Of a DNA stretch of 35,372 bases, positions 21,444 to 35,372 are shown piece after piece. The stretch is from an uncultured Candidatus Obscuribacterales bacterium (GTDB taxonomy: Bacteria > Cyanobacteriota > Vampirovibrionia > Obscuribacterales > Obscuribacteraceae): contig CAZSNX010000002.1 of assembly GCA_964607945.1 (NCBI GenBank), positions 1 to 35,372 of the forward strand, in the 5' to 3' direction. The notes beneath the pieces are model-generated. The model ran no database searches. It had not been told where the DNA came from and was given only the letters and a program-made list of their open reading frames with translations. Position numbers and translations under genes: made by a program. Within the stretch, counting starts at the first letter, position 1; every line of letters begins with the position of its first letter.

Positions 21444-22178
21444 ATGACTAAGAAGAAACAGGCAGAACAAAAGAATTGCGGCAATCAGATCTTGTTTGCC
21501 GGCTTGGGTTTGGTTCTGGCTACTGTACCTTTTGCCTGTCCTGGCTCGTCTGTGCAAGCTCAGGGAATGCAGTCTCTGCGCAATCCGCTTATTCCGGGCG
21601 TGCCAAGCGCTGGCCCGATGGAACAAGCCCAGGAAGGCATGCCGCCGCCGCCGGGCGATGGCGATACTCCGATGCCGGTAACTCCGGGGCATGAAGGCAA
21701 CCCGTTGCCGCCGCCGTCGGCAGTGACCGTTCCGGCTACCAGCCCGCTCGACAAGAGTGAAGTCAACTCGGCTGTCGCACCATATTTGACGCCACCGCCG
21801 TCAACTCCCGGCCAGAACCCCGGCATGCTTCCCGGAACATTAAGCGGCTACAGACCGCCGGCACTGATGACTGAGGTGCAACCTCAAGGTGGTCTTCAAG
21901 GCAATGCACCGATCCATAAGTGGGATGGGCAGACGACCAGGGATTATGGTCTAGTCCGGCCGCGCGGTTCGCAATCGACCGACTTTGGGCGGCCGCTGGA
22001 TCAAGTATCTGTGGTTCGAACCAACAAAACCGAGGACGGGCCGCGTCCGATCGGGCAAAACGGGGCACCGATGCAGCCAAATCTGGGCGGTGCTCAACAA
22101 ACTTCAGACCTTTACGGCGCAAGGACTCTGTACAAAGGTGCGTACCTGCGTCCTGTCATGACTATTGCTCCTTATTAA
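21444..22178 (+). CDS. secreted Pro-rich protein, paralog A
   Basis: Signal peptide ends in VQAQG. The mature part starts with LRNPLIPG. It shares PPPSTPG..PG and STDFG.P blocks with the next gene and ends in ...TIAPY. Confidence 0.6.
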   Translation: MTKKKQAEQKNCGNQILFAGLGLVLATVPFACPGSSVQAQGMQSLRNPLIPGVPSAGPMEQAQEGMPPPPGDGDTPMPVTPGHEGNPLPPPSAVTVPATSPLDKSEVNSAVAPYLTPPPSTPGQNPGMLPGTLSGYRPPALMTEVQPQGGLQGNAPIHKWDGQTTRDYGLVRPRGSQSTDFGRPLDQVSVVRTNKTEDGPRPIGQNGAPMQPNLGGAQQTSDLYGARTLYKGAYLRPVMTIAPY

Positions 22179-22206
22179 CCCAGGCTTCCAGGAGGCCAAG
22201 TAAATC

Positions 22207-23175
22207 ATGTTGACCAAGATAATCACCAGGGTAGCAATCGGCTTAGCGGTCACCGCCGGAGTGTGGCACAGCGCAGGCTGTCAATCCGCCCACGCTCAAG
22301 GGTCGAGCACGCTGCGCGACCCGCTCATTCCTGGGGCTATCAGCTCCGCGCCGTTTTTCCCGGCCGCTGAAGGTCGACCGCCGGCTCCCGGCAGCGGACC
22401 CACGCCGGCACCGGTCATCCCCGGTCAGGGCGGGCCGCCGACGCTATTGCCCTGGATACCGGCTGTGCCGTCCAATCAGATCGATATCGGCTCGAGCGGA
22501 ATACCTCTACCATTTGGACCTCCGGTTGAAATGCCGCCGGGCGTGCTCGGTCCTTTGATGACCCCCTTTGTGCCTGCACCGCCCTCCACTCCTGGTGTAG
22601 ACCCGGGCATTTTGACCGTGCCGCCCTATGCTCAGACATTCAACCCATCGGCGCTGGCGCCGGTTGCTCCGCTCGGCGGCATTCCCGGTACCGGTGGTTA
22701 TAACACCACCATCCCGACAGTCCGTCGCGGCGGGCAGGAGACTCATCAGTGGGAGTTGCGCGGGCGCAACAGTTCGCTGATTGGCGGATTGGGCGACGGC
22801 AGCCAAGATCAAGTATCGCGTTTGGGTCCTTATACCGGTTGGGGCTTGCCGTTCGGCGTGCCGACCGGCAACGGGCTGCGCAACAACTCGATCGATCTAG
22901 GCGGCGGCATGCGCTTCGGTGGCGGTGAAGGTACGCCTATTTCAACCGGCTCATCCTTGCAGGATTTCGGCGACAGCGCCATGCGTAACGCTCCGATCCA
23001 GGGGCTGGGCGCTCAGCAGTCGTACGAATACGGGCAAGGCTGGCGCCGGATTCCGATGTACAGCAGCAAGTCGACTGACTTCGGCTTCCCCTACAAGCAG
23101 TTCAATGGCGCCAACATCGGCAACCAAAAAACAGGACAGCGCTTGAATCCTACCGCTGTGATCACCAACTTCTAG
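22207..23175 (+). CDS. secreted Pro/Gly-rich protein, paralog B
   Basis: AGGAGG RBS. The signal peptide ends in AHAQG and is followed by LRDPLIPG. It shares blocks with 21444-22178 and ends in ...AVITNF. Confidence 0.65.
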   Translation: MLTKIITRVAIGLAVTAGVWHSAGCQSAHAQGSSTLRDPLIPGAISSAPFFPAAEGRPPAPGSGPTPAPVIPGQGGPPTLLPWIPAVPSNQIDIGSSGIPLPFGPPVEMPPGVLGPLMTPFVPAPPSTPGVDPGILTVPPYAQTFNPSALAPVAPLGGIPGTGGYNTTIPTVRRGGQETHQWELRGRNSSLIGGLGDGSQDQVSRLGPYTGWGLPFGVPTGNGLRNNSIDLGGGMRFGGGEGTPISTGSSLQDFGDSAMRNAPIQGLGAQQSYEYGQGWRRIPMYSSKSTDFGFPYKQFNGANIGNQKTGQRLNPTAVITNF

Positions 23176-23182
23176 CCTGCCA

Positions 23183-23216
23183 GGGGGGATTCTCCCATTG
23201 CAGTGGGAATTCCCCC
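23183..23216 (+). promoter_or_regulatory. two-copy GGGAWTYCCCC motif (site A) upstream of gene 23294
   Basis: The sequence is GGGGGGATTCTCCC-N8-GGGAATTCCCCC. The ends of the two copies are 20 nt apart. A TAAGAT -10-like hexamer (23242-23247) lies 25 nt after the second copy. Confidence 0.45.
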
Positions 23217-23293
23217 GCTTTCCTCCAGCAGGCGCTTCTCGTAAGATTCCAGCATCGCTCCATCCCCAGGCAAACAAAATCGAAGCCACCAAA

Positions 23294-24079
23294 ATGAAAA
23301 CCCTCCTTCCCAATTCGAATAAGACAGTACGGACGCTAGCGTTCGTAGCTGCCACGGTTCTGTTGGCAAGCAGCAGTGTTGGTCAAGCAGCCAGCGCTCA
23401 GGGATATGCCAGCGGCCAGTCTAACTACTTTGCCTCGGCCGGCTCCGAGCAAGATTCGTTGTTGCCACCAGAAGTGGTGCCGCTGGATCCGGTCGCTGCC
23501 AATAAGCTAATGGAAAGTCAGGCGCAATCGAGAGCAGCCAATATCGATATTCCCGACATGCAATCGGCCCCTGGTATGGTCACGATGGACCAGCCTGGAG
23601 CCGGCATGCAAACCGCTCAAGATGCTCGCAAAGCGGCGTTCAACCAGTTGATGGGGCAGAACCAAGTCGCTCCGATCAACCGCTCGTATCAGCCGCAGAT
23701 GCCTGGCGGTCAGATGGGACCTGGCGGTTTCCCCGGCGCTCCTGGCGCCGGAAATCCGAATTTCCCCTATCAACCGCAAATGGCCAACAACTATCCCGGA
23801 CCGCAAGGCGGTGCGGGCGGGCAAACCGCTCAGTCCGGTTGGATGCAGCCCGGACAAGGTGGACAACAGACTCTTTCCGGTGGTGTGAAATACACCCAAC
23901 AAAGACGTGATATTCGCCGGGCCGGCTTGTCGAATGCCGTAAGTGCGGTCGCCGGTCTAGGCACGGGATTGTTCCTCGGCTCGCTGGTTTCGCGCTCTTA
24001 TTATTCGAACCCGGTCGGGCTCGGGATGATGGGGTTGGGAATGACGGGATTTGGCATACGAAATGGATTTAGGTTCTAA
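23294..24079 (+). CDS. secreted Gln/Pro/Gly-rich protein with C-terminal glycine-zipper hydrophobic tail
   Basis: I chose M33 of the track ORF: MKTLLPNSNKTVRTLAFVAATVLLASSSVGQAASAQG is a good signal peptide. The C-terminus is GLGTGLFLGSLV...GLGMMGLGMTGFGIRNGFRF. Confidence 0.6.
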   Translation: MKTLLPNSNKTVRTLAFVAATVLLASSSVGQAASAQGYASGQSNYFASAGSEQDSLLPPEVVPLDPVAANKLMESQAQSRAANIDIPDMQSAPGMVTMDQPGAGMQTAQDARKAAFNQLMGQNQVAPINRSYQPQMPGGQMGPGGFPGAPGAGNPNFPYQPQMANNYPGPQGGAGGQTAQSGWMQPGQGGQQTLSGGVKYTQQRRDIRRAGLSNAVSAVAGLGTGLFLGSLVSRSYYSNPVGLGMMGLGMTGFGIRNGFRF

Positions 24080-24083
24080 GCAT

Positions 24084-24806
24084 ATGAAAGTGATCATTCT
24101 CGCTCTAATAACCACAGCAGCCACCAGCGTTCTTGCAGTGCAAAGCGCGAACGCCGAGGGTCGCTCCGCCCGATTCGATTTCGCTCCCAACATGTGGAAA
24201 GTCGAAGGGGTGCGCGTGCCTCCCATCCAAGAAGCTCCGCATGCAGTCAAAAGCGGTGCCGTGCCTCATGGTGCAAGCTTCCTCGGTCTGTCTCCGCATA
24301 TGCTCACTAAGCCGGCGCCGGTTCATCAACCGGCAATGCCGCCGCAAGCGCAAACTCAAGTAGCGGCAAAACCGAGCTTCACTCGGACCGTACCGCAGAT
24401 AGCAGTGCCTAACACGCAATACAAGAACGAATTCGGCAAGGCCGGCAGTTTGAATCCACCGGTGGTGGCAAGTGCACCGCCTGCTGTTGCTCCGCCGCTG
24501 CCGCAGTCTGCCGGTCAGGCTCAATCGCTGCCGCCGATGTCGCAGCAAGCCGCACCGGCAAAGGCAAGCTATCCAGCCAAACCGCTAGTGGCTCACAATC
24601 GTACGTCCTCAGCCAGAAATGTGCACGGAGTGCTTAAGCATCGTAACGCACCGAGTGGGCTGGTTGCCGATGCCGGCAAGAGGATCGACAGTTATGGCAA
24701 CAACGGTTATGTTCCAGGTTCATTTCTCCCGGCCGCTTACACCGGCGATGGTTCAACTACTCAGACCGACGTACACGGTCGAGTCATGAGCCACAGATCG
24801 AAATAA
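24084..24806 (+). CDS. secreted Pro/Ala-rich protein
   Basis: ATG 24084 lies 4 nt after the upstream stop. Signal peptide is MKVIILALITTAATSVLAVQSANAEG. The body is Pro/Ala/Gln-rich and low in complexity. Confidence 0.55.
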   Translation: MKVIILALITTAATSVLAVQSANAEGRSARFDFAPNMWKVEGVRVPPIQEAPHAVKSGAVPHGASFLGLSPHMLTKPAPVHQPAMPPQAQTQVAAKPSFTRTVPQIAVPNTQYKNEFGKAGSLNPPVVASAPPAVAPPLPQSAGQAQSLPPMSQQAAPAKASYPAKPLVAHNRTSSARNVHGVLKHRNAPSGLVADAGKRIDSYGNNGYVPGSFLPAAYTGDGSTTQTDVHGRVMSHRSK

Positions 24807-24880
24807 GGCATCACTTCGTTTCTCAACTAATTGGCGCAAGGTCAATAGATCTCTAAACTGACAACCCTAGGAGGTTAAAA

Positions 24881-25312
24881 ATGGTAACCAGCATTAAATC
24901 AACCAGCAAGAAGATTATGTCTTCTCGCGCCTTCAAGGTTGCCTGTCGCGTGGGATTTCTCCTGGCTCCACAACTGGTCCTCATGGCCATCGGTGTTTAC
25001 GATCAAGTAGCACATGCCCAAGGGCTGGTGGGAGCTCCAGTAGACCCCCGCTACGGGCAATCAAATGAAGTAGGTCAGATGGCCGACTTCGGATATGACA
25101 CCGCACGTGACATATCCCGGGTCGTGACCGCGCTTTCGACAATTCCGTCCTCGATGGCGGGAATGAAGATCGCTTTCGGTCAACGTGACGGTGGTGAATC
25201 CGCCATGAACGTAGCCAAAGGACTCGGTATCGGATTCGGTGGACCGACAGCGGTTCACTTGATCGGAACGTTCGCCATCAACAACTTCGGCGGACTCGGC
25301 GGCGGTCTATAA
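24881..25312 (+). CDS. small two-helix membrane protein, candidate VirB2/TrbC-like pilin
   Basis: Strong SD (AGGAGG, 7-nt spacer). A long leader ends in AHAQG. The mature part is about 96 aa with two Gly-rich hydrophobic segments (ISRVVTALSTIPSSMAGMKIAFG and GLGIGFGGPTAVHLIGTFAI) separated by a charged loop (QRDGGES). It sits immediately upstream of the VirB6-like genes. Confidence 0.5.
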   Translation: MVTSIKSTSKKIMSSRAFKVACRVGFLLAPQLVLMAIGVYDQVAHAQGLVGAPVDPRYGQSNEVGQMADFGYDTARDISRVVTALSTIPSSMAGMKIAFGQRDGGESAMNVAKGLGIGFGGPTAVHLIGTFAINNFGGLGGGL

Positions 25313-25327
25313 CCGTCACCGCTTTTC

Positions 25328-25352
25328 GGGCCGGTATCTTCGATACCGGCCC
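25328..25352 (+). terminator. stable hairpin 16 nt after the pilin-candidate stop; possible attenuating terminator
   Basis: GGGCCGGTAT-cttcg-ATACCGGCCC forms a perfect 10-bp stem with a 5-nt loop. No U-tract follows, so it is not a canonical intrinsic terminator. Confidence 0.35.
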
Positions 25353-25362
25353 GAATCCTTCA

Positions 25363-25378
25363 GGGGGAATTTCCCCCC
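25363..25378. promoter_or_regulatory. single near-palindromic copy GGGGGAATTTCCCCCC (site B) upstream of VirB6-like paralog 1
   Basis: It has the same core as sites A and C. It lies between the post-pilin hairpin and gene 25494. Confidence 0.35.
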
Positions 25379-25493
25379 TCAAGTCGAAAGCTTCGGCACC
25401 AGTCAGAACTTCGAAGCAAGACTTCAAAAACTTTCCAAGCGGTTGTAGAGAGACCAAGCGTTTGCCGAAAGAGATGCTACCCACCTCGCAAAG

Positions 25494-28400
25494 TTGGATT
25501 CAACAGTGTTAGCCGACACTACTTGCATGATTCAATTTCTCTATCGGCTCCTGTGCGCCAGGATTTTTGATTCGACGCGCTTGCCTGCACTTTCTACCTG
25601 TAGAGTCGAAGTAAGAAAGAGTTCTTCAAGCAGAGCCGGTCGTGCACTGCTTGTAATGTTCTTGTTGTTGGCACCATACATTCTTTTGTCCGGCGCCGCT
25701 CTCGCTCAAACCGAGCCGCCCCAGCAGAAGGCCGGCGATACGCTGCCGATCGGGGCAGGCGATCTCGGAGCCGGCGATGATCTTTCGCCCAAGGCCAGCC
25801 GTACCGATCCGACCTCGAAGTATTACACTGATTCGCGAGCCGACACCAACCTGGTGACTCAGGAAGCCGAACAGAACAAAAATGGCGTCACCGAGATAGT
25901 TACGGATATGCTGAAAGGGCAGCTCGGCGAATACAACGACGTTTATTGGGGTCAGCACCAGTTCTGGTCGGATGATATTGTAAGCAACCTCTTTTCGAAT
26001 ATCGGCCAGCTGATTGGAAAATGGCTGACTGAGTTCATCGATGGCTGGGTAGCTGATACCGTTCAGTTCCTGACAGCCTTCCTTAGAATCTTCGTGCTCA
26101 ATCCCAACATCGCCGTCAACGGTTTGAACGGCAACGGGCAAGATGACATCTCACCTTATATCCGTCAAGCTGCCGATATAATGTATGGCATTGCGGTCGA
26201 CCTGCTGCTTTTGCTCTTTATCCTTTGCATTTGGAAGTATTGGGCTGAAGCCTCTTGGCGAGGCGGCGGCAACCTGATGGGTGCGGTCGGCAGATTGATC
26301 TTCACAGCCGGGCTGATGCTGGCTTGGCCGACCATCTATGCATTCGAGATTCAAATCACCAATGAGATGATCAAGGCCATCTATTTCAATTCGGCCGATC
26401 AGGTCGTGATGCTGGATGCCGCTATGGCTGCCGCAGTCAAGGGAGGCTTGATGGCGACGGCCGGAGGGCTGGCTCATGCCTTCGCACCGGTAATCTTTTC
26501 AGTGGCAGGTGGTGCTCTCGGCGGCGGTGCCGGCGGTCTGGTTTTAGGCACTGTTGGTGATATCGTGTCGTTCGCCGGGTTGCTTATCTACACCACCTTA
26601 GGTGTGGTGCTGATTACCGAGTTGGTCTATTTCCTGGTGCTAAAGGCGATTCAGACAGCGCTTCTGGTCGCTCAATACATGTTTGCGCCGATTTTTCTGG
26701 TGTTCTTCGCCACTCCCGATACCGAGTCGGTGACTTCCGGATTCGTCAAAGCATTCGTTGAAGTCAGTCTCTGGAATTTCGTCTGGATTGGACTGCTCAA
26801 GATCATGGTGATCGTCTTGTATTCCGATTTCAATCCCTGGGGCAAGATTATTATGGCTGTGGGCATTCTGCAGATCATGATTCAAGTGCCGGGCTTCCTT
26901 TCCCGAGCTCAAATCAGCCCGATGTCCGATTTCATTTCGGCCGGCTTGATCTCCGGCAGCGTGCTCAACGGCTTCAAAGCTCTGGGAATGGCGGCTACGA
27001 AACGCACATCTCAGCTGTTCGACTACATGTTCAATCAACAATACGCCGCGCGCGGATTGACGCAATCTACCGGTGCTGTGATGGCGACTTTGCCGACTCA
27101 GGCTGCTGACCCCAAACTGCTCAATCAAATCAGAGCGGCGGCTGTCGGCAAGTCTCTCGATGGCAGACCTGATACCGGTCCGGGCCGTCCGCCGGCGGCT
27201 CGCGGTGATGGCGCCCATTCACTGGCTGCGCCTGGTTTGACCGGGCTCAATGGACAGCAGCCGGAGACCGAACAGCAGAAACAGGCCCGCCTCGAGCAAG
27301 AGCGACAACAAAAGGCGCAACAGTATGCGGCCGTTTTGGCAGCTGCCAGAACCGGTACCGGTTTGCCGGCTGGTACGCAGCCCGTTGCTGGCGCCGCCGG
27401 AGTACCACTTGATGCCGCTGGCGGTGCCGGTGCTAATCTCAATGCTACCCCCGGAGTTAGAAATAATCTGGCGGCCGGTGCACTAGTCGGCGCCAGCGCA
27501 GGAATGGCAAGAGCGCTTTCGGATGCCGGGCTTCATCGCGGCGTGACCGATCCGCTCACGACCAATGTCGCACACGGGCTGCAAGGTGCCGGTCAAGCTT
27601 TCGAGAAAGGTCTGGACGAAAAGTTTGCGCACGGTGGTGCCGAAGGCGATGTAATCAATCCGGCACAACGATTCAATCATGCCGGTTATAAGTTCGTGCA
27701 GGCGAAGATAGCTGCTGTCGATGCCCGTACGTATAACGGCAACAGCATCGGCTTTTCCGATGACGGTCAGAACAAACTGGTTGGTGATGGACGCGGCAAT
27801 TTGAGGCATATGCGTGCTCGCAAAGGCGCCTCTGCCGAAGAAGTCGCGCATTTGGTGCTGGCCGGCGGCTTTACTGAGCTGTTCAAGGACGATTCGGAAG
27901 CTTTCGATGCTGCCCGGCAATCGGCTATTGATTCAGGCGAAGATGGTCCGAAAGGAATGTTCGAACGCATGGGCGCAGGCTTCATGGCGCATCAAGGCGG
28001 AACCTTCAAGCAAACGGCCAGAGCCAAGGAGCGCTTCGCCAAGTCGCTATTCAAGCATGCTGCTCTGGGCGCCGAGTCTTACGTAAGCGGTAAGCCCGGC
28101 AATGCCTACACTGAATATCTAAGAACACGTTTCGGAGATTGGAGCGCCAAAGACGACACTTGGGGTACTCATATCTTGACCGATGCGGCGTCACCGGAAT
28201 CGCCATGGAATCCAAAGTATGTCCCAGCAACGGAAACCGTGTTCCAGTCAGGCTTGCCGATCAACAACCAGAACCGCGCGGCTGCCGCCAACCCGTATGT
28301 GATGAAGCTGCCGGCCTGGCAGCGTAGAGCTGGTATCGTTGCCGTCTCCGGTTATTTGAAACAATTGGCTGATGCTCAATATCCGGATGCCGACGACTAT

Positions 28401-29438
28401 GTGCGCGACGCGGCGATTGGTCGGATGTCGCAACAAGTGGGTAATTCGGAGGTCGAAGCGGCCTATGCAATTCAGGTCGAATCGAACGGAGCCGATGTCA
28501 GTGTTCCGATCGTGCAAACTGTCGCTCAATTGAGCGAAGATCCACGCTGCAAGGATGCGGCTTCGGCATATCTCAATCTGCGTTCGCTGGTCGCTCACTC
28601 GTCGGGTGGCGGCACCCGCCGCGGCAACATAACGATTCAAGCGATGCTGCGGGATAGCGGCGGTGGTGGCGGGTCAGCGGCGCCGGTGCATCCAGGAAAT
28701 GTCCATATCCCAACCATCAATTCGCCGCCTCCGGTAGTTCAGCAGGATGCCGATATCGAGATTGTCGGCGGCGGTGGCGGCAGCGCCGATGGCAATCAGC
28801 CGGTACAAAGGCTGAGTATGGATGTTCCTCTCAACAATTCCGGTCAACCGCAAGTTCACACTGATACTCGTGTTCACGGTGGTGGCGCCGGCGGTGGTGG
28901 CGGCGTGCTCAACCAGAATGTCGAAGTGGAAGTACGTGGTGTGGGCGGTCAAGGACAGGCTCCCACCATCAGCCAGGGCGATATCGCCGGGGCCGTTGCC
29001 GGAGCCGGAGTCAATACGAGACCGCTTTACATGGCTGCTCAGATGATGCTGGATATGTACAACGCCGGCTTCAACGATTCGCAGATTCAAGACCCGAAAG
29101 TAGCCAACATCGCTACTCACTATTACAGTCAGGGTCAACCGCATATGCTCAGCACAGTAGCTGTTGCCGCTCGCGTCCTTGGCAACAACGATGTAAGCGC
29201 AGGCACCGTGCAGACGATTCAAACCATGATTGATGCCGGTCACAATCCCAACCAGATTCAACGTCCGGATGTATGGACGGCGGAAGCTTGTATCGCCAGA
29301 CAGCTCTACCCGACGCCGGCACAGGTGCGCCGATGGAGGCTGGATGAGCGCTTCAGCCCGCACAGAGGCTCGATGCTGCCGCCGAATCTGGGACGCAACG
29401 ATGGCCGACCCGATCCGCCCCAACATCGTGGCTCCTAA
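25494..29438 (+). CDS. giant VirB6/TrbL-like polytopic membrane protein with ~800-aa C-terminal extension, paralog 1
   Basis: 1314 aa. The signal-like segment ends in ALAQ-TEPP. About 8-9 TM segments lie at aa ~230-500. LLLLFILCIWKYWAEASWRGGGNLMGAVGRLIFTAGLML resembles the first TM, loop and second TM of TrbL/VirB6. A low-complexity linker and a conserved soluble C-terminal region follow. The start is uncertain (TTG 25494, ATG 25527, TTG 25581). Confidence 0.7.
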   Translation: MDSTVLADTTCMIQFLYRLLCARIFDSTRLPALSTCRVEVRKSSSSRAGRALLVMFLLLAPYILLSGAALAQTEPPQQKAGDTLPIGAGDLGAGDDLSPKASRTDPTSKYYTDSRADTNLVTQEAEQNKNGVTEIVTDMLKGQLGEYNDVYWGQHQFWSDDIVSNLFSNIGQLIGKWLTEFIDGWVADTVQFLTAFLRIFVLNPNIAVNGLNGNGQDDISPYIRQAADIMYGIAVDLLLLLFILCIWKYWAEASWRGGGNLMGAVGRLIFTAGLMLAWPTIYAFEIQITNEMIKAIYFNSADQVVMLDAAMAAAVKGGLMATAGGLAHAFAPVIFSVAGGALGGGAGGLVLGTVGDIVSFAGLLIYTTLGVVLITELVYFLVLKAIQTALLVAQYMFAPIFLVFFATPDTESVTSGFVKAFVEVSLWNFVWIGLLKIMVIVLYSDFNPWGKIIMAVGILQIMIQVPGFLSRAQISPMSDFISAGLISGSVLNGFKALGMAATKRTSQLFDYMFNQQYAARGLTQSTGAVMATLPTQAADPKLLNQIRAAAVGKSLDGRPDTGPGRPPAARGDGAHSLAAPGLTGLNGQQPETEQQKQARLEQERQQKAQQYAAVLAAARTGTGLPAGTQPVAGAAGVPLDAAGGAGANLNATPGVRNNLAAGALVGASAGMARALSDAGLHRGVTDPLTTNVAHGLQGAGQAFEKGLDEKFAHGGAEGDVINPAQRFNHAGYKFVQAKIAAVDARTYNGNSIGFSDDGQNKLVGDGRGNLRHMRARKGASAEEVAHLVLAGGFTELFKDDSEAFDAARQSAIDSGEDGPKGMFERMGAGFMAHQGGTFKQTARAKERFAKSLFKHAALGAESYVSGKPGNAYTEYLRTRFGDWSAKDDTWGTHILTDAASPESPWNPKYVPATETVFQSGLPINNQNRAAAANPYVMKLPAWQRRAGIVAVSGYLKQLADAQYPDADDYVRDAAIGRMSQQVGNSEVEAAYAIQVESNGADVSVPIVQTVAQLSEDPRCKDAASAYLNLRSLVAHSSGGGTRRGNITIQAMLRDSGGGGGSAAPVHPGNVHIPTINSPPPVVQQDADIEIVGGGGGSADGNQPVQRLSMDVPLNNSGQPQVHTDTRVHGGGAGGGGGVLNQNVEVEVRGVGGQGQAPTISQGDIAGAVAGAGVNTRPLYMAAQMMLDMYNAGFNDSQIQDPKVANIATHYYSQGQPHMLSTVAVAARVLGNNDVSAGTVQTIQTMIDAGHNPNQIQRPDVWTAEACIARQLYPTPAQVRRWRLDERFSPHRGSMLPPNLGRNDGRPDPPQHRGS

Positions 29439-29688
29439 AATTAGCTAGCTGGCTCCGAAGAGTTCGGCAGAGCGGCAAGATGAGTGCTGCCAGCCGTTTT
29501 TGGCGCTCCGGCAATTGAGTTGTTTGACGTCGGCTTACATCCCTATGCCGAAATCGACGGAAGCCGATAGTCAAAATCGTGCACAATTACACACTTACCA
29601 AAGTCGCCGGGCGCAATAACATTTAACTGTTGTTCCCTCCAACAAAATCAAGACCGCTTCACAGGCGGTTGGGCTGGCTTGTGTTCTC

Positions 29689-32600
29689 ATGAATAAAAGA
29701 TGGAATTTTTACGCTGGCATCGTCGGCCGAACAGATAGCCGCTCCGGCTTGGCGTTGTGCGCGCTATTGCTCGTTTTATTACCTTACTTTTGCCTGATTC
29801 CAGCATCCAATTCGCAGACCGAGCCGCCGGAGTCGGGCAATGCTTCGTCAAACAGTGCAAATGCAGTCTTAGATGATGGTTTGTCCGAGCAAGCGAAAAA
29901 GACTGATGCTACTGCCCGCTATTTTACCGATGCCGATCTCGAAACTTCGCTGGTACAGCAAGCCGCCGAGCAAAACAAGACCGGTGTGATTGAAGAAGTG
30001 GAGCGCCTTTTAAGAGGGGAGCTCGGCGTATACAACGATACTTACTTCGCGCTCCATCAATGGTTTTCCGACGATTGGGTAAGCAATCTCTTTGCCAATA
30101 TCGGGCAATTGATCGGTAAGTGGCTGACGGAATTCTTGTGTGGCTGGGTGGCGGATACGGTCAGATTGCTGACTGCGTTCTTGAAAATTTTCGTGCTCAA
30201 TCCCAATCTACCTGTCAACGGGATGAAGCAAGACGGACCATCGGATGATATCTCCAAGATGGTCTGCCAAGCTACTGATGTTATGTATGGAATTGCCGTC
30301 GACCTGCTCCTGCTGCTTTTCATTCTCTGCATCTGGCGATTTTGGGCCGATGCGGCGTGGAAGGGCGGCGGCAATCTGATGGGGTCTGTCGGGCGCTTAA
30401 TTTTCACCGCCGGGCTGATGTTGGCATGGCCGACTATCTTTGCCTTCGAGATTCAAATCACAAATGAGATGATAAAGGCCGTCTACTTCAATTCGGCAGA
30501 TCAACTCGCTCAATTGGATGTCGCACTGGCAGCGGCGGTCAAAGGTGGGCTGGTAGCGACGGCGGCCGGTATTGCACAGGTATTTGCGCCGGTTTTAGGC
30601 GCAGCGACCGGCGGTGCGCTGAGCGCCGAGCTCGGCGGTATGGTGCTGGGCACCGTCGGCGATATCGTGGCCTATGCCGGGCTGATAGTTTTCACTATCC
30701 TGGGCGTCGTCCTGATAGCCGAAATAATGTATTTCCTCATATTGAAAGGGATTCAAACCGGGCTGCTTACCGCCCAATATATGTTTGCGCCAATTTTCCT
30801 GGTCTGTTTCGCTACCCCTGATACCGAATCGTATGCCTCCGGTTATGTCAAAGCGTGGATTGAGACGAGCTTGTGGACTTTCATCTGGGTCGGACTGTTC
30901 AAAATAATGGTGATCGTCATCTACTCGGATTTCAATCCCTGGGGCAAGATTATTATGGCGATCGGCGTTTTGCAATTGATGATTCAAGTGCCGGGATTTC
31001 TTGCCAGAGCAATGATATCGCCGATGTCTGACTTCATTTCGGCCGGTCTAGTTTCGGCGATGGCGTTCAAGGGGTTGGCTACTTTAGCCGGTGTCGGTGG
31101 AAAGGCGATGAATCGCTTCACCAAACAAGTGGCGGAGTGGCCGGCGCAGTATCCGCTCGTTTCAAAGGCGGCCGATCTGAACCGGTTGCCTACAAATGCT
31201 GCAGACCCGAACTTATTGGCTCAGTACAGAACGGCTTCTGCCGCCAAACCGATGGGAGCTGCCGGCACCGCCGGCTCACTGGGTGGTCCGGGCGCGGCCG
31301 GCGCCATCGGTAGCTCCGGAGCTGGAATCAATACCGGCACTGCAATCAACACTCAAAATGGTGCCGCTCAACCGGTAGCCGGTCAAACTGGTGCCGGATT
31401 TGCAGCCGGTGGGCAAATGACTGGCGTGCCGCAAAGAAGAGGCTCGCTTGGTGGCGTTGGGGCAAATCCGGCGTTGACTCCTGCCGGTCAGCCGGAAACT
31501 GAAGAGCAGCGTCAGAAGCGTCAGGAGATGGAAAGACTGCAAAAGGCCTCTAAATATGCTGCTGCTCTCCAGCAACAGAAGCAGGGTATAGTCACCGGCG
31601 GTTCAGCGCCGGGAACCGCAAACTTTGCCGCGGCCGGCGCGCTTACCGGAGTTCGGGCCGGACTGGGACGGACGCTCTCGCCGGCTGGTGTTCAGCGCGG
31701 AATGGTTGATCCCACTACAACCGGTGTTCCCGACGACGTGCAAGGACAAGATTTCATTTCAGCGGGGCTTGACAGTCTGCCCGGCTCGAATCAGCCTGAA
31801 AAGAAAGCCACATTCAATGCCGCAGAACAGCTCAATCAAGCTTATTACAAGTTCGTCCAAGGAAAGATAGCGGCGGTAAACGCTCGCACGTACAACGGCA
31901 ACAGTATCGGCTATTCCACCGATGGAAAAAACAAGCTTGTCGGTGACGGCAAGGGCAATCTCCGGCATATGCGAGCGCGCAAAGGCGCGACACCGGAGGA
32001 GGTGGCGCATCTGGTGCTGGCCGGTGGCTTCACTGAACTCATGAAAGATGATGCCGAAGCGCATGATGCCGCCAGAAATGCGGCGATTGACTCCGGTGTG
32101 CTGGAGCCTGAGCGATTGGGAAGACCGGGCGGGCTGTCCGAGCGGATAGCAGCCGGTTGGATCGGTTACAACGGCGGCAGCTTCCGGGAAACTGCCTTGG
32201 CCAAACAACGGTTCAATCGGGCGATGTTCGAACAAGCTGCCACCGGCTCAGAAGCTTATGTCAGCGGCCAGGAAGGCAATGCTTACACACAATATTTGCG
32301 CACTCGTTTCGGTGAATGGACGAGCAAGGACGACACCTGGGGTGTCCACATGATGACCGATGCCTCGATTGCGGCATCGCCCTGGAATCCTACCTACATC
32401 GCTGCCACCGACTCGATCCTGCAAGGCGGCATGAAGATAGATGAGCGGAATCGTGCCGCAGCCGGCAATACGCATGTTTTGAAACTGCCTGCCTGGCAGC
32501 GAAAGACGGCCATCCCGGCTGTGGCTGCTTACGCCACTCAGTTGGCCGAAGCGCAGTTTCCCGGGGCTGATTCTACAATCATCGACTCGGCGGTGCTGGG

Positions 32601-33450
32601 CCTGGTGCAGCACTTGAGCCCTCATGAAGTCTCGGCAGCCAATGCTATCTATCTGGAAGCTGGTGTGGAAGGGCTGTCGGTGCCGATGGTGCAGACAGTG
32701 GCCAATCTCTCCCGGCTGCCTGGCTCCGGCAGCGCTGAAGATGTGTACAAGAGCTTGCGCAGCACGATGAATGTGGTGACCAGTGCGCGACCGAGGAGCG
32801 CCGGCGGCAGTTCAACTGTTCGTGTCCTTTATGATGAAGGCGGCGGCTCAGCTCCACCCCCACCTCCGGCAATCGATGGCAACTTTATCGACGGCGGGCA
32901 TAGTGCAGCCGGTGTAACTGATATCGAAGTTCGCCCGCTTGGCGGGTCGCCCGGAGATTACAGTTCACCGGTGCAGGAAATTCATGTCGCCTCAGGCGGA
33001 GGCTCGTCTGGTGTAAGTGTTGGTAGATTTGATATGCCGCCGGCACAAAATGCCAATTTGATCGAGCGAGCCAGTCAGGTGGTGGTGCGCATGTATGACG
33101 CCGGCATGAACGACAAGCAGATACGCGACAGTCGGGTTGCCGATCTCGCTCATCATTTCTACGATAACCATCCGCACATGATGCATGCGGTTTCAGTGGC
33201 GGTGGATTGCCTGCCGCCGGGCGAATTGGATGTCGAGTCGGTCCATACAATAAATGATATGTTGAGCTCCGGTTACAACCCCGGTCAGATTCACCGCGCC
33301 GAAGTGGAGGTCGCTCGACGCTTCCGCGGTCAAAATATTGACCCCTCTCCGCGAGCTGTTGCCAGCTGGAGACAACGAGCTTACAATGATCCGACCATGA
33401 ACTCCGCTCCGCCGTCCCCACGCGGGCGAAAAGATCGAGTCAACCAATAA
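29689..33450 (+). CDS. giant VirB6/TrbL-like polytopic membrane protein with C-terminal extension, paralog 2
   Basis: 1253 aa and collinear with paralog 1. By-eye alignment gives 64/72 identical residues at 30289-30504 against 26187-26402, and 71/84 identical at 31846-32097 against 27687-27938. Confidence 0.75.
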   Translation: MNKRWNFYAGIVGRTDSRSGLALCALLLVLLPYFCLIPASNSQTEPPESGNASSNSANAVLDDGLSEQAKKTDATARYFTDADLETSLVQQAAEQNKTGVIEEVERLLRGELGVYNDTYFALHQWFSDDWVSNLFANIGQLIGKWLTEFLCGWVADTVRLLTAFLKIFVLNPNLPVNGMKQDGPSDDISKMVCQATDVMYGIAVDLLLLLFILCIWRFWADAAWKGGGNLMGSVGRLIFTAGLMLAWPTIFAFEIQITNEMIKAVYFNSADQLAQLDVALAAAVKGGLVATAAGIAQVFAPVLGAATGGALSAELGGMVLGTVGDIVAYAGLIVFTILGVVLIAEIMYFLILKGIQTGLLTAQYMFAPIFLVCFATPDTESYASGYVKAWIETSLWTFIWVGLFKIMVIVIYSDFNPWGKIIMAIGVLQLMIQVPGFLARAMISPMSDFISAGLVSAMAFKGLATLAGVGGKAMNRFTKQVAEWPAQYPLVSKAADLNRLPTNAADPNLLAQYRTASAAKPMGAAGTAGSLGGPGAAGAIGSSGAGINTGTAINTQNGAAQPVAGQTGAGFAAGGQMTGVPQRRGSLGGVGANPALTPAGQPETEEQRQKRQEMERLQKASKYAAALQQQKQGIVTGGSAPGTANFAAAGALTGVRAGLGRTLSPAGVQRGMVDPTTTGVPDDVQGQDFISAGLDSLPGSNQPEKKATFNAAEQLNQAYYKFVQGKIAAVNARTYNGNSIGYSTDGKNKLVGDGKGNLRHMRARKGATPEEVAHLVLAGGFTELMKDDAEAHDAARNAAIDSGVLEPERLGRPGGLSERIAAGWIGYNGGSFRETALAKQRFNRAMFEQAATGSEAYVSGQEGNAYTQYLRTRFGEWTSKDDTWGVHMMTDASIAASPWNPTYIAATDSILQGGMKIDERNRAAAGNTHVLKLPAWQRKTAIPAVAAYATQLAEAQFPGADSTIIDSAVLGLVQHLSPHEVSAANAIYLEAGVEGLSVPMVQTVANLSRLPGSGSAEDVYKSLRSTMNVVTSARPRSAGGSSTVRVLYDEGGGSAPPPPPAIDGNFIDGGHSAAGVTDIEVRPLGGSPGDYSSPVQEIHVASGGGSSGVSVGRFDMPPAQNANLIERASQVVVRMYDAGMNDKQIRDSRVADLAHHFYDNHPHMMHAVSVAVDCLPPGELDVESVHTINDMLSSGYNPGQIHRAEVEVARRFRGQNIDPSPRAVASWRQRAYNDPTMNSAPPSPRGRKDRVNQ

Positions 33451-33598
33451 TCGAGTCTTCAAATTTATAAGTGAGCCAATCAGAGTTAGTTGGCGCAGAT
33501 GAGGCTATCCCTCACGCAGTGTTGCGATGCGTTGATTAATTCTTGCTTCCCGACTACGTATTTCCCCCACTAATTTGCCTGAAACGCCTATTAGCGAT

Positions 33599-33630
33599 GG
33601 GCATTCCCCCATGACCGTGGGATTTCCCCC
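33599..33630 (+). promoter_or_regulatory. two-copy GGGAWTYCCCC motif (site C) upstream of the zinc-ribbon gene
   Basis: The sequence is GGGCATTCCCCC-N8-GGGATTTCCCCC. The ends of the two copies are 20 nt apart. A TACACT -10-like hexamer (33656-33661) lies 25 nt after the second copy, the same geometry as site A. An extra partial copy, TATTTCCCCC, is at 33559-33568. Confidence 0.45.
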
Positions 33631-33708
33631 GATTCACCGCGGAAGATGCCGGCCATACACTATGGACACGTGAATTGGAAGCCACTCACGGACTGGCAGG
33701 AACCCATT

Positions 33709-34407
33709 ATGCAAGTCATCAAAGAGTTTAGCGTTCAACCTACATCAGTGGTCTGTCCGGCCTGCAATTCAATCTTTGCCACCCCGGCGCTGGTAACGAT
33801 GCCGAATGTCACGCCCGAAACTTTGATCGAGGCTGACCTGCACAGGGTGTTGCCTGATGCGGCGATTCGAGCTGCGCTGGTGGCGATGTGTCCGGCTTGC
33901 AGCTATACCTGGTGGATTACCGCATTCAGACCACATCTATTTAAGCCCGGTCTGGTTCCTCCCACACCGATTATCGACAGTCCTAAGAAGTTTGCTCATG
34001 CCGTTTTGACCGGCAGACAAAACGGTGCTCACAGCTTGGACCTGGCACTGTTGGCGTTGAACGGATGCTGGTGTGCGCGCGAGGCCGGACAGCCTCACGA
34101 GCGCTGGCTGGAGCTGGCCGGAGCCGAACTCGAGAAAGCTTTGAGAGATGTCGAATGGAATGGCAATCGTAGCTACTATCACTATGTCATGGGTGAAGTC
34201 TGCCGGCAGTCGGGAGAGTTCAAAGGTGCGGTAAATCAGTTAAATCTGGTCGGACCAGAGTCAATGTTGCCGAAAGAATTAGTGGAACGCCAGAAGGTGC
34301 AGGCGATATCCGGCGATGCCAAGCCGGCGGCGCTGCCACCGCATCTGGTGGAGCTCCTTTTCTGTCCGAGAGTGAAGCAGCAAGAAAGTTTGGTTGCTGA
34401 GGAGTAG
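33709..34407 (+). CDS. DUF2225-like zinc-ribbon protein with helical (TPR-like) C-terminal part
   Basis: CPAC...(about 40 aa)...CPACSYTWW matches the split zinc-ribbon layout I recall for DUF2225. I prefer the start MQVIKEF (ATG 33709, AGGAA upstream) over ATG 33646, because 33646 lies upstream of the putative -10 element. Confidence 0.55.
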   Translation: MQVIKEFSVQPTSVVCPACNSIFATPALVTMPNVTPETLIEADLHRVLPDAAIRAALVAMCPACSYTWWITAFRPHLFKPGLVPPTPIIDSPKKFAHAVLTGRQNGAHSLDLALLALNGCWCAREAGQPHERWLELAGAELEKALRDVEWNGNRSYYHYVMGEVCRQSGEFKGAVNQLNLVGPESMLPKELVERQKVQAISGDAKPAALPPHLVELLFCPRVKQQESLVAEE

Positions 34408-34415
34408 CCGGAGAG

Positions 34416-34754
34416 ATGGAAGATATCACACCGCTTAATCTTGAAGATCAACCAAAGCTGTTCGGATTGCGTTACGACCAGCTGATAGCAATCCTGGCCA
34501 GCTTGATCGTATCGACGCAACTTTATTCTTGGCTCAACCCCGTTCCGTTCGCCGGACACGATCTCCGGTTGGACATTGCTATCCTGATCGGAATGATTGG
34601 TCCTATTTATGCACTATTCACCCTAAACAACTCGGCAGCACATTGGGAAAATGTACTGAATTTCTTTCTTTCATCGAAAGTCTATATTCCGGGACCGGAT
34701 CCAAATCCGAATCGTTTTCTTCTTGACGAAGAGCTAGTTGACTTCAGCGAGTAA
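34416..34754 (+). CDS. VirB3/PrgI/TcpE-like small two-TM type IV secretion component
   Basis: 112 aa. PKLFGLRYDQLIAILASLIV resembles the (F)(G/N)LT.RQL motif plus TM1 of PrgI/TcpE-type VirB3 analogs. A second TM is DIAILIGMIGPIYALF. It lies immediately upstream of the VirB4-like ORF. Confidence 0.55.
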   Translation: MEDITPLNLEDQPKLFGLRYDQLIAILASLIVSTQLYSWLNPVPFAGHDLRLDIAILIGMIGPIYALFTLNNSAAHWENVLNFFLSSKVYIPGPDPNPNRFLLDEELVDFSE

Positions 34755-34759
34755 ACACA

Positions 34760-35372
34760 ATGGTAGCTTCAATTTCAAGACAACGTGCTAAAGAGAGCAA
34801 CCTTCTAGGCTTCATGCGCCGGACGAAGATTGACTCCGCCGACAGTGTCGGCATATCCAAGCTGCCGGCAATGGCGGTGCCAAGACCGCACGGCTCTGCC
34901 GCCGGATTAATCCCGATCTGGGACCTCTTCCAGGATGACAATTCAGGTCTGGGGGTGATCGTCCTTAAAGACGGAAGCTATCGTTGCTGTTTTGAAGTCG
35001 ACGGCGTTCACGTGAGCGGTTTCGATGAAGTACGGTTGGTCTCCTTGATGAACCACTTTACCGGCTTTCTCAATTCGATCGACACATCCGTTCAGCTCAC
35101 GATCGTCTGTCACAACATAAGCAAGAGAGAATATTTCGCACGCCATCCGGTAGAGGTAATTGATGATGAGTTTCTCAAATACGTCGCACGCTCTGTTGAA
35201 AACGATAAAGCATTTCTTCTCTCCAAGAACTTCATTCCAGAGCTCAAGTTCTACGTCACTTTCTGCTATCGCCCCCCGCGCGAAAAGCCAGCCAAGCAAG
35301 GATGGCTCGAAAGCACGCTCAGCCACATTCAAGATGTCTTCACAAATCAAGCCGCACGTCAGACGGTCGGGC
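34760..35372 (+). CDS. VirB4/TraE-like type IV secretion ATPase, N-terminal fragment; runs off the window end
   Basis: My own translation from ATG 34760 (5 nt after the upstream stop) is open to the window end and is not in the ORF track. GLGVIVLKDGSYRCCFEVDGVHVSGFDEVRLVSLMNHFTGFLNSIDTSVQLTIV follows the N-terminal pattern of VirB4-family proteins (dG.y...levdg.n.....e......f..fLnsl....iq). Confidence 0.65.
   Translation, partial: MVASISRQRAKESNLLGFMRRTKIDSADSVGISKLPAMAVPRPHGSAAGLIPIWDLFQDDNSGLGVIVLKDGSYRCCFEVDGVHVSGFDEVRLVSLMNHFTGFLNSIDTSVQLTIVCHNISKREYFARHPVEVIDDEFLKYVARSVENDKAFLLSKNFIPELKFYVTFCYRPPREKPAKQGWLESTLSHIQDVFTNQAARQTVG

Follow-up and report, generated by a model that had tools for sequence, protein, structure and literature searches.

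What is the block of some 320 residues shared by two giant proteins that are encoded side by side in the chromosome of an uncultured Candidatus Obscuribacterales bacterium, and what might it do there? The genes lie in a stretch of 35,372 nucleotides (the window, positions 1-35372 of contig C2), the source assembly of which comprises 4.96 Mb in 769 contigs and is 82% complete. Both giants possess a polytopic hydrophobic module and their genes are found within a cluster resembling a type IV secretion system (T4SS). An initial annotation, made from the window alone, had singled out the block as a probable folded functional domain of VirB6-like proteins.

Comparison of the two giant proteins

The two giants were found to be collinear paralogs with 48% identity overall (BLASTP E = 0). 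Their similarity is due to gene duplication rather than chance, as orthologues of both copies occur in other genomes. The features of the pair are given below, with positions being those of the window and amino acids (aa) being those of paralog 1 unless stated otherwise.

25494..29438, + strand: giant paralog 1, 1314 aa counted from TTG (open reading frame (ORF) list, translation)
25971..26993, + strand: polytopic hydrophobic module, aa ~160-500 (hydropathy, predicted helices)
26994..27653, + strand: low-complexity linker 1, aa 501-720 (29% paralog identity)
27654..28610, + strand: conserved domain of paralog 1, aa 721-1039 (AlphaFold2-confident core aa 723-1037, window 27660-28604)
28611..28988, + strand: Gly-rich linker 2 (20% paralog identity)
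28989..29393, + strand: C-terminal helical module of ~130 aa, a domain apart from the conserved block (paralog 2 counterpart at 33049-33372)
29689..33450, + strand: giant paralog 2, 1253 aa (its own domain in an orthologue clade with 100/100 support)
31819..32790, + strand: conserved domain of paralog 2, aa 711-1034 of that protein (pLDDT ~90; profile E = 7.6e-130)

Paralog 1 is ordered as a signal peptide, an acidic segment, the polytopic module, a linker, the domain, the Gly-rich linker and the C-terminal module. Its start is uncertain, with the longest ORF giving 1314 aa from a TTG codon and a 99% identical database protein (P0003) having 1300 aa; the true start may lie a few codons downstream of the TTG.

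The long block common to both giants was recovered with coordinates that agree to within a few codons with those given initially. Of the 313 residue pairs of this block that align between the paralogs, 185 are identical (57% when every alignment column is counted), which sets the block off from its divergent flanks (29% in linker 1 and 20% in linker 2), as had been described. The polytopic module is 73% identical and the C-terminal module 34%. The best-conserved stretch of the block is aa 721-812 (78% identical), and the best 84-aa window of a MAFFT pairwise alignment, aa 732-815 (YKFVQ...AIDSG), has 71 of 84 residues identical, exactly the count that had been made by eye. All of the motifs quoted at that time were found in both giants, namely YKFVQ.KIAAV.ARTYNGNSIG, GNLRHMRARKGA, EEVAHLVLAGGFTEL, DAAR..AIDSG, NAYT.YLRTRFG, SPWNP, and LPAWQR.

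Structure prediction and boundaries of the domain

A word-indexed search with aa 715-1045 of paralog 1 against 5.8 billion proteins yielded 49 proteins, most of them 1184-2298 aa long, with three shorter records of 822-931 aa, one or more of which are marked as partial. None of the 49 has a name other than 'hypothetical', and the sole taxon labels are Melainabacteria or Obscuribacterales. The domain is collinear throughout and is 318-333 aa long in 45 of the 45 aligned homologues, while the linkers vary five-fold in length (193-1096 aa for the preceding one, 74-320 aa for the following one); it is on account of this constancy that the domain is considered discrete. Mean pairwise identity within this family of 45 is 78% for the membrane module, 44% for the domain, 35% for the C-terminal module and 25-29% for the linkers, with identity of the domain across the order ranging from 26 to 48%.

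Two independent AlphaFold2 runs bear out that the block is folded. The isolated domain (aa 715-1045, modelled with an alignment of homologues) obtained a mean predicted local distance difference test score (pLDDT) of 90.1 and a predicted template modelling score (pTM) of 0.81, with only the termini falling below a pLDDT of 50. When aa 45-1244 of paralog 2 were modelled (a 1200-aa model), the domain again had a pLDDT of ~90 with the order of secondary structure elements unchanged; the linkers were mostly below 50, with one short helix standing out from the rest of linker 1, and the membrane module was at 40-65. The C-terminal module, which is kept in most homologues, had a pLDDT of ~86 in the same model. 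The fold begins with short helices and a three-stranded sheet (model residues 37-61; DSSP strands E37-40, E47-50, and E56-61) followed by about sixteen helices, and is mainly helical. The parts of the domain referred to in this and the following sections are:

27660..27833, + strand: N-terminal alpha/beta sub-part, model residues 9-66 (DSSP; short helices plus three-stranded sheet)
27906..27938, + strand: motif DAARQSAIDSG with D805, R808, D813, and G815 (invariant columns, alignments A2 and A3)
28014..28121, + strand: conserved helices with T841, A844, K845, F848, G859, and Y863, then GNAYTEYL with N870, T873, and L876 (invariant or nearly invariant columns)
28221..28289, + strand: 'PATE' helical hairpin PATETVFQSGLPINNQNRAAAAN, aa 910-932 (match of a repeat hidden Markov model (HMM))

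The N-terminal alpha/beta sub-part is absent or different in L033, the most divergent member.

Taken by these models, the block is a discrete, autonomously folding, mainly alpha-helical domain of ~320 residues. The contrary view would be that there is no true domain and that a low-complexity or disordered region has been conserved only through recent duplication, the two copies being paralogs and nothing further. This is barely credible and is refuted by the two high-confidence models and the constant length; in addition, members with 26-48% identity share invariant motifs across an order, and the duplication predates at least three lineages.

Similarity to known families and folds

No match was obtained for either giant in Pfam, NCBIfam or PHROGs, and when 20 domain sequences were compared with family libraries at E ≤ 10 nothing consistent emerged. 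Two matches from these comparisons, to DUF5812 (E = 0.14) and to GH20b (E = 0.019, in one of the 20 members), were judged to be noise. Searches of PDB sequences by phmmer and by profile gave nothing under E ~1; a gp41 construct, the ATP synthase b subunit, and a phage sheath initiator appeared at E ~1-2 and were rejected as chance matches. With the domain model as query, the best Foldseek hits were at E = 2.4 (PDB) and E = 0.45 (BFVD) with a query-normalised TM-score of at most 0.21, and the best hit of the 1200-aa model in the PDB was at E = 1.0, the C-terminal module likewise being without a fold match in that search. In plasmid records, tblastn of the domain returned nothing below E = 4. 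A lysozyme-like relationship was also considered, prompted by the layout of helix, three-stranded sheet and helices, and was discarded as there is neither a fold match nor a conserved Glu.

The initial annotation could not assign the block to a family and this held across Pfam, NCBIfam, PHROGs, PDB sequences and profiles, and Foldseek of the PDB and BFVD. The domain represents a new family and perhaps a new fold, attached to a protein architecture of a known type.

Taxonomic distribution

A profile built from alignment A3 (containing only the window and locus DNA) was compared with 1.84 billion representative proteins and matched 243 representatives at E ≤ 1e-3, of which 86 were at E ≤ 1e-30. 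A scan for the motif DAAR[QN][SA]AI[DE] in one genome per GTDB species gave 29 confirmed loci, all in metagenome-assembled genomes of Obscuribacterales or Melainabacteria; three of the 29 are labelled otherwise (two Proteobacteria, one Drouetiella) and are presumably mislabelled bins. In whole-genome searches the domain was present in 89 of 96 genomes of its own family and in all three of a second Obscuribacterales family, with no copy in ~200 genomes sampled from nine further families of the class, nor in 300 from elsewhere in the phylum. The membrane module is distributed in the same way. As judged from these searches, the domain family is restricted to the order Obscuribacterales.

The only domain copies in the source genome are the two tandem ones. 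In the domain tree, paralog 2 groups with P0011, P0012, and P0013 (support 100/100), and P0012 and P0013 share contigs with the paralog-1-type genes P0005 and P0004. As both types co-occur in other genomes, the duplication is older than several lineages and both copies have been retained.

Conserved residues and possible function

The positions that do not vary in the most diverse alignment, numbered as in paralog 1, are D805, A806, A807, R808, A811, I812, D813, G815, P819, G835, A844, K845, F848, G859, Y863, N870, T873, L876, G881, S903, and A912, with the motifs DAARQSAID, TAxAK, and GNAYTxYL forming the conserved core. No His, Cys or Glu is invariant in the domain alignments, H772 and H893 being conserved in most members and not in all. 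Of the catalytic-type residues that the initial annotation had suggested looking for (His, Asp, Cys), only Asp is invariant (D805 and D813).

An enzyme of undescribed fold, for example one acting in cell-wall remodelling (the role of VirB1) or in the handling of nucleic acids or nucleotides, would account for the compact invariant polar set (D805, R808, D813, K845, Y863, N870, T873, and S903) and would suit a cluster in which no VirB1-like hydrolase was recognised among the genes. However, neither fold nor profile similarity was found to lysozyme-like, SLT, CHAP, LytM or other enzyme families; the absence of invariant His, Cys and Glu extends to the Glu of 'GSEAYV', in place of which homologues have Gln, Ser, Ala or Thr; and the short paralogs described below keep the fold yet delete its best-conserved motif. 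Catalysis is consequently regarded as unlikely.

The reading we lean towards, with moderate confidence, is that of a non-enzymatic interaction (docking or adaptor) domain, flexibly tethered to a subunit of the 'extended VirB6' type. The lack of an invariant His, Cys or Glu argues for a non-enzymatic role. An interaction surface is suggested because the domain (44% identity) evolves faster than the membrane module (78%) and than two machine components compared across other Obscuribacterales loci, VirB4 (72-83%) and the pilin-like protein (78-92%). In such an arrangement the giant would be the 'extended VirB6' subunit of the system and the domain, carried by a long flexible tether, its docking or adaptor head, the surface formed by DAARQSAID, TAxAK, and GNAYTxYL would bind a fixed partner in the machine, and the 'PATE' hairpin would serve as a reusable binding element. 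The partner could be cytoplasmic (the coupling protein or substrate docking) or periplasmic to external (the platform, pilus or target contact).

The hairpin recurs outside the domain. Small single-pass proteins of Obscuribacterales (P0161, P0167, and P0186) carry it as two to six tandem repeats of the form PAT[ED]xLxxxG-IPI-xxxxRAAAA; no such tandem-repeat protein was found in the source genome assembly. An HMM made from their repeats matches the PATE position of the domain only (E down to 3e-12). The tandem-repeat proteins and the short domain-bearing paralogs have a common N-terminal anchor (..AY.K....EHP, an Ala/Gly-rich segment and basic residues). An internal duplication within the domain, in which the DAARQSAID helix would correspond to the PATE hairpin, was also considered and found no support, the repeat HMM matching the PATE position alone. 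The recurrence of the hairpin speaks more for a role in scaffolding or binding than for catalysis, without proving it.

Association with the membrane module

The initial annotation raised the possibility that homologues occur only in fusion with VirB6-like modules. Most domain matches without the membrane module are indeed fragments, but a second genuine architecture exists, which disposes of this idea: proteins of ~450-560 aa that consist of a short tail at the N-terminus, a single hydrophobic segment rich in Ala and Gly, and a diverged domain copy. P0084, P0086, and P0099, short single-pass paralogs of this kind, have lost the core from DAARQSAID to TAxAK by deletion. Other proteins carry divergent copies as well, with P0111, P0117, P0119, and P0187 having the domain joined to other N-termini and to helical C-terminal repeats.

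Several further loci bear on this association. One single-pass orphan, L034:8258-9610 (- strand), has its complete ORF within a closed genome of 6.7 Mb (G196:C1), where it sits among two-component regulators and away from T4SS genes. Another orphan with a degenerate domain copy, L035:7921-9612, lies in a locus without T4SS genes. The N-termini of P0117, P0119, and P0111, which are Ala/Gly-rich hydrophobic segments, have homologues without the domain in the source genome (contigs C167:2821-3570, C21:6016-6594, C516, and C530). Conversely, a divergent membrane module (41% identical) is found in a ~650-aa frame without a domain match (G178:C2:1182815-1183924), and other divergent module copies (29-35% identical, frames of ~500-650 aa), at G057:C13:486294-487328 and in G144:C41, may be further cases. 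The domain and the membrane module seem to be separable in both directions.

The label 'VirB6-like' is drawn from gene context and polytopic character. The host protein is polytopic, with five or more hydrophobic helices as judged from hydropathy and long predicted helices, and its gene lies inside a T4SS cluster near VirB3, VirB4 and the coupling protein, with VirB4 and VirD4 having been identified. Its extension of ~800 aa, in which two domains are modelled as folded with confidence and two linkers as disordered, is of the kind seen in extended VirB6 proteins. A TrbL/VirB6 match by profile or structure was not obtained: PF04610 (TrbL/VirB6) gave no Pfam match at E ≤ 1 for either giant and none genome-wide at E ≤ 10, TraG-type families (F-type C-terminal domain) gave no Pfam or NCBIfam match in the giants, and in the comparison with the solved VirB6 fold (TrwI, R388) the model of the module was of low confidence (pLDDT 40-65) and Foldseek of the PDB returned nothing below E = 1. 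The membrane module had no tblastn match in 72,556 plasmids.

Topology and membrane side

Hydropathy and charge bias gave conflicting topology models with six, seven or eight helices. The segment following the last hydrophobic helix has a net positive charge (K+R 4.2 vs. D+E 1.9), and in eight of the eight anchors inspected in short paralogs and repeat proteins, acidic residues precede the hydrophobic segment and Arg/Lys follow it; these charges, read from sequence, point to a cytoplasmic domain. A periplasmic domain is pointed to by the cleavable-looking signal peptide and acidic segment at the N-terminus of the giant, by the Pro/Gly-rich tethers, and by the precedent of R388, in which VirB6 has only two helices, both N-proximal, in the membrane, with the rest forming a periplasmic pentamer that is the docking site of VirB5 (PMC12857230).

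The periplasmic placement is relevant to a second functional possibility, that the domain is a tethered substitute for a VirB5-type tip or platform protein, or a module for target-cell or envelope contact, comparable to the C-terminal domain that TraG of the F plasmid has in the periplasm. Profiles did not recognise a homologue of VirB5 in the cluster, nor of VirB7, B8, B9, B10 or B11. The signal peptide and acidic segment, the largely periplasmic VirB6 of R388 to which VirB5 docks (PMC12857230), Pro/Gly/Lys-rich tethers of up to ~1100 aa that allow a long reach, and the faster evolution of the domain relative to the machine core would all fit. Against this, there is no structural match to VirB5/TraC in the PDB, and a cytoplasmic location is favoured by the way charges are distributed behind the last hydrophobic helix and within the short paralogs; we rate a substitute of this kind as quite improbable. 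More doubtful again is the extended proposal that the domain might be the business end of a lineage-defining Obscuribacterales machine, replacing a VirB5-type tip or contact protein on a tether of 200-1100 residues and serving the lifestyle of the organism and not the spread of plasmids.

Gene cluster

The left part of the window contains housekeeping genes, encoding an oxidoreductase of the glycerol-3-phosphate dehydrogenase type, sugar-nucleotide enzymes, Lgt, RadA, and UvrC, together with a YfhO-like membrane protein and MgsA/RarA. A co-directional cluster begins at ~21.4 kb (window 21444-35372), the first four proteins of which have no family match. Besides the giants, it includes the following genes:

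24881..25312, + strand: pilin-like (VirB2-like) gene, 143 aa, directly 5' of paralog 1 (96% identical to the syntenic gene of L001)
33709..34407, + strand: Zn-ribbon protein of ~235 aa, syntenic (weak zinc-binding match)
34416..34754, + strand: VirB3-sized gene, 112 aa, syntenic (synteny)
34790..35371, + strand: N-terminus of a VirB4 ATPase continuing beyond the window end (weak TIGR00929 match; 89% identical to the VirB4 of L001)

The 143-aa pilin-like protein had no family match in profile scans. The VirB4 of L001 matches a TraC-F-type model (E = 5.6e-49) as well as the CD1110 family and VirB4_CagE models, with scores in all of the matched models far under the equivalog cut-offs, and the PDB sequences that it matches are those of VirB4 and TrwK.

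Three distant relatives have the order MgsA, several unknown secreted proteins, the 143-aa pilin-like protein, giant, ~235-aa protein, 112-aa protein, VirB4 (AAA_10, P-loop_TraG), a ~213-aa protein, and VirD4 (T4SS-DNA_transf), with a Replic_Relax protein closing the cluster in two of the three. By tblastn of the cluster proteins, the same neighbours were found at the 29 species-level loci wherever the flank was long enough. The cluster adjoins MgsA in the three contexts examined, and in at least one of them YfhO-like and UvrC genes too. Synteny of the T4SS-like cluster was observed order-wide (window 21444-35372 and loci L001, L003, L004, and L007-L033). A literature search found no paper on a T4SS of Obscuribacterales. 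The cluster looks like a divergent machine of the T4SS type that is chromosomal and vertically inherited rather than mobile.

The neighbourhood also bears on the view that the domain is cargo, a delivered effector or toxin released from the giant as a C-terminal payload like those of polymorphic toxins. The domain does come after a long linker, in the second half of a secretion-system protein, and F TraG is believed to undergo processing. However, polymorphic payloads vary by strain and are paired with immunity genes, whereas this domain is constant in 45 of 45 homologues, is followed by a conserved C-terminal module, and has conserved machine parts rather than immunity-like genes downstream. 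Delivery as cargo is accordingly very improbable.

The acidic segment before the membrane module (window ~25818-26057, paralog 1 aa 109-188) holds a motif of ~70 aa that in several genomes also has matches in small ORFs located 1-3 kb 5' of the giant (for example G196:C1:5006969-5007178 and 5007938-5008102). These ORFs presumably encode secreted Pro-rich proteins of the cluster, which suggests that the motif is a module common to several cluster proteins.

Comparison with known systems

Extended VirB6 proteins possess large hydrophilic C-proximal domains, the role of which 'is not yet known' (PMC12857230). The function of such domains is an open question of the field for which this compact, sharply bounded modelled domain offers a clean case, with a natural series at hand in its tether lengths, variants without the core motif, few invariant residues, and near-universal presence in one order. 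For now it adds to the domains of unknown function (DUFs), and registration of the family, for instance as a DUF, would be possible. The domain also draws attention to a T4SS-like machine in the Obscuribacterales chromosome with an unusually conserved VirB4 and pilin-like protein.

Known extended VirB6 proteins (F TraG; RvhB6 of Rickettsiales and VirB6-4 of Anaplasma; the MPF_FA VirB6 homologues of 700-900 aa) resemble the giants in having a polytopic N-terminal module followed by hydrophilic, partly unstructured C-proximal regions (PMC12857230, PMC7648143). The gene is likewise located beside VirB3/VirB4, and tandem paralogs are found as in Rickettsiales (PMC12857230; PMC7648143). Unlike these proteins, the giants have a membrane module and a domain without detectable sequence similarity to TrbL/VirB6 or TraG, the domain occurs in Obscuribacterales only, and the locus is on the chromosome, with synteny throughout the order, rather than being borne on a plasmid or an integrative and conjugative element.

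VirB5/TraC proteins are similar in being mostly helical, in having a few hundred residues, and in their association with the VirB6 platform, and their role is unfilled in the Obscuribacterales cluster. However, the Obscuribacterales domain has no profile or fold match to them and is covalently tethered, whereas VirB5 is a separate secreted subunit. VirB1-like hydrolases (SLT, CHAP, LytM, muramidase), which were not recognised in the cluster, also provide an accessory T4SS function and are often found on membrane-anchored proteins, but the domain has neither a lysozyme-like fold match nor a conserved catalytic Glu or Cys.

Among related bacteria, the T4SS of Vampirovibrio is acquired and of the Agrobacterium-like T-type, with two of its three operons being plasmid-borne (PMC4451040). 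A further comparison is with the chromosomal, non-mobile T4SS of Patescibacteria, which their lifestyle requires. Obscuribacterales differ in being relatives of cyanobacteria with genomes of 3-9 Mb, and no Patescibacteria protein was seen to be homologous to the domain. Both machines share a minimal set of the VirB3/B4/B6/D4 type with pilin-like genes that is fixed lineage-wide (PMC12857230). If the tip or contact role were true, the apparatus would serve a lifestyle, as the chromosomal T4SS of Patescibacteria does.

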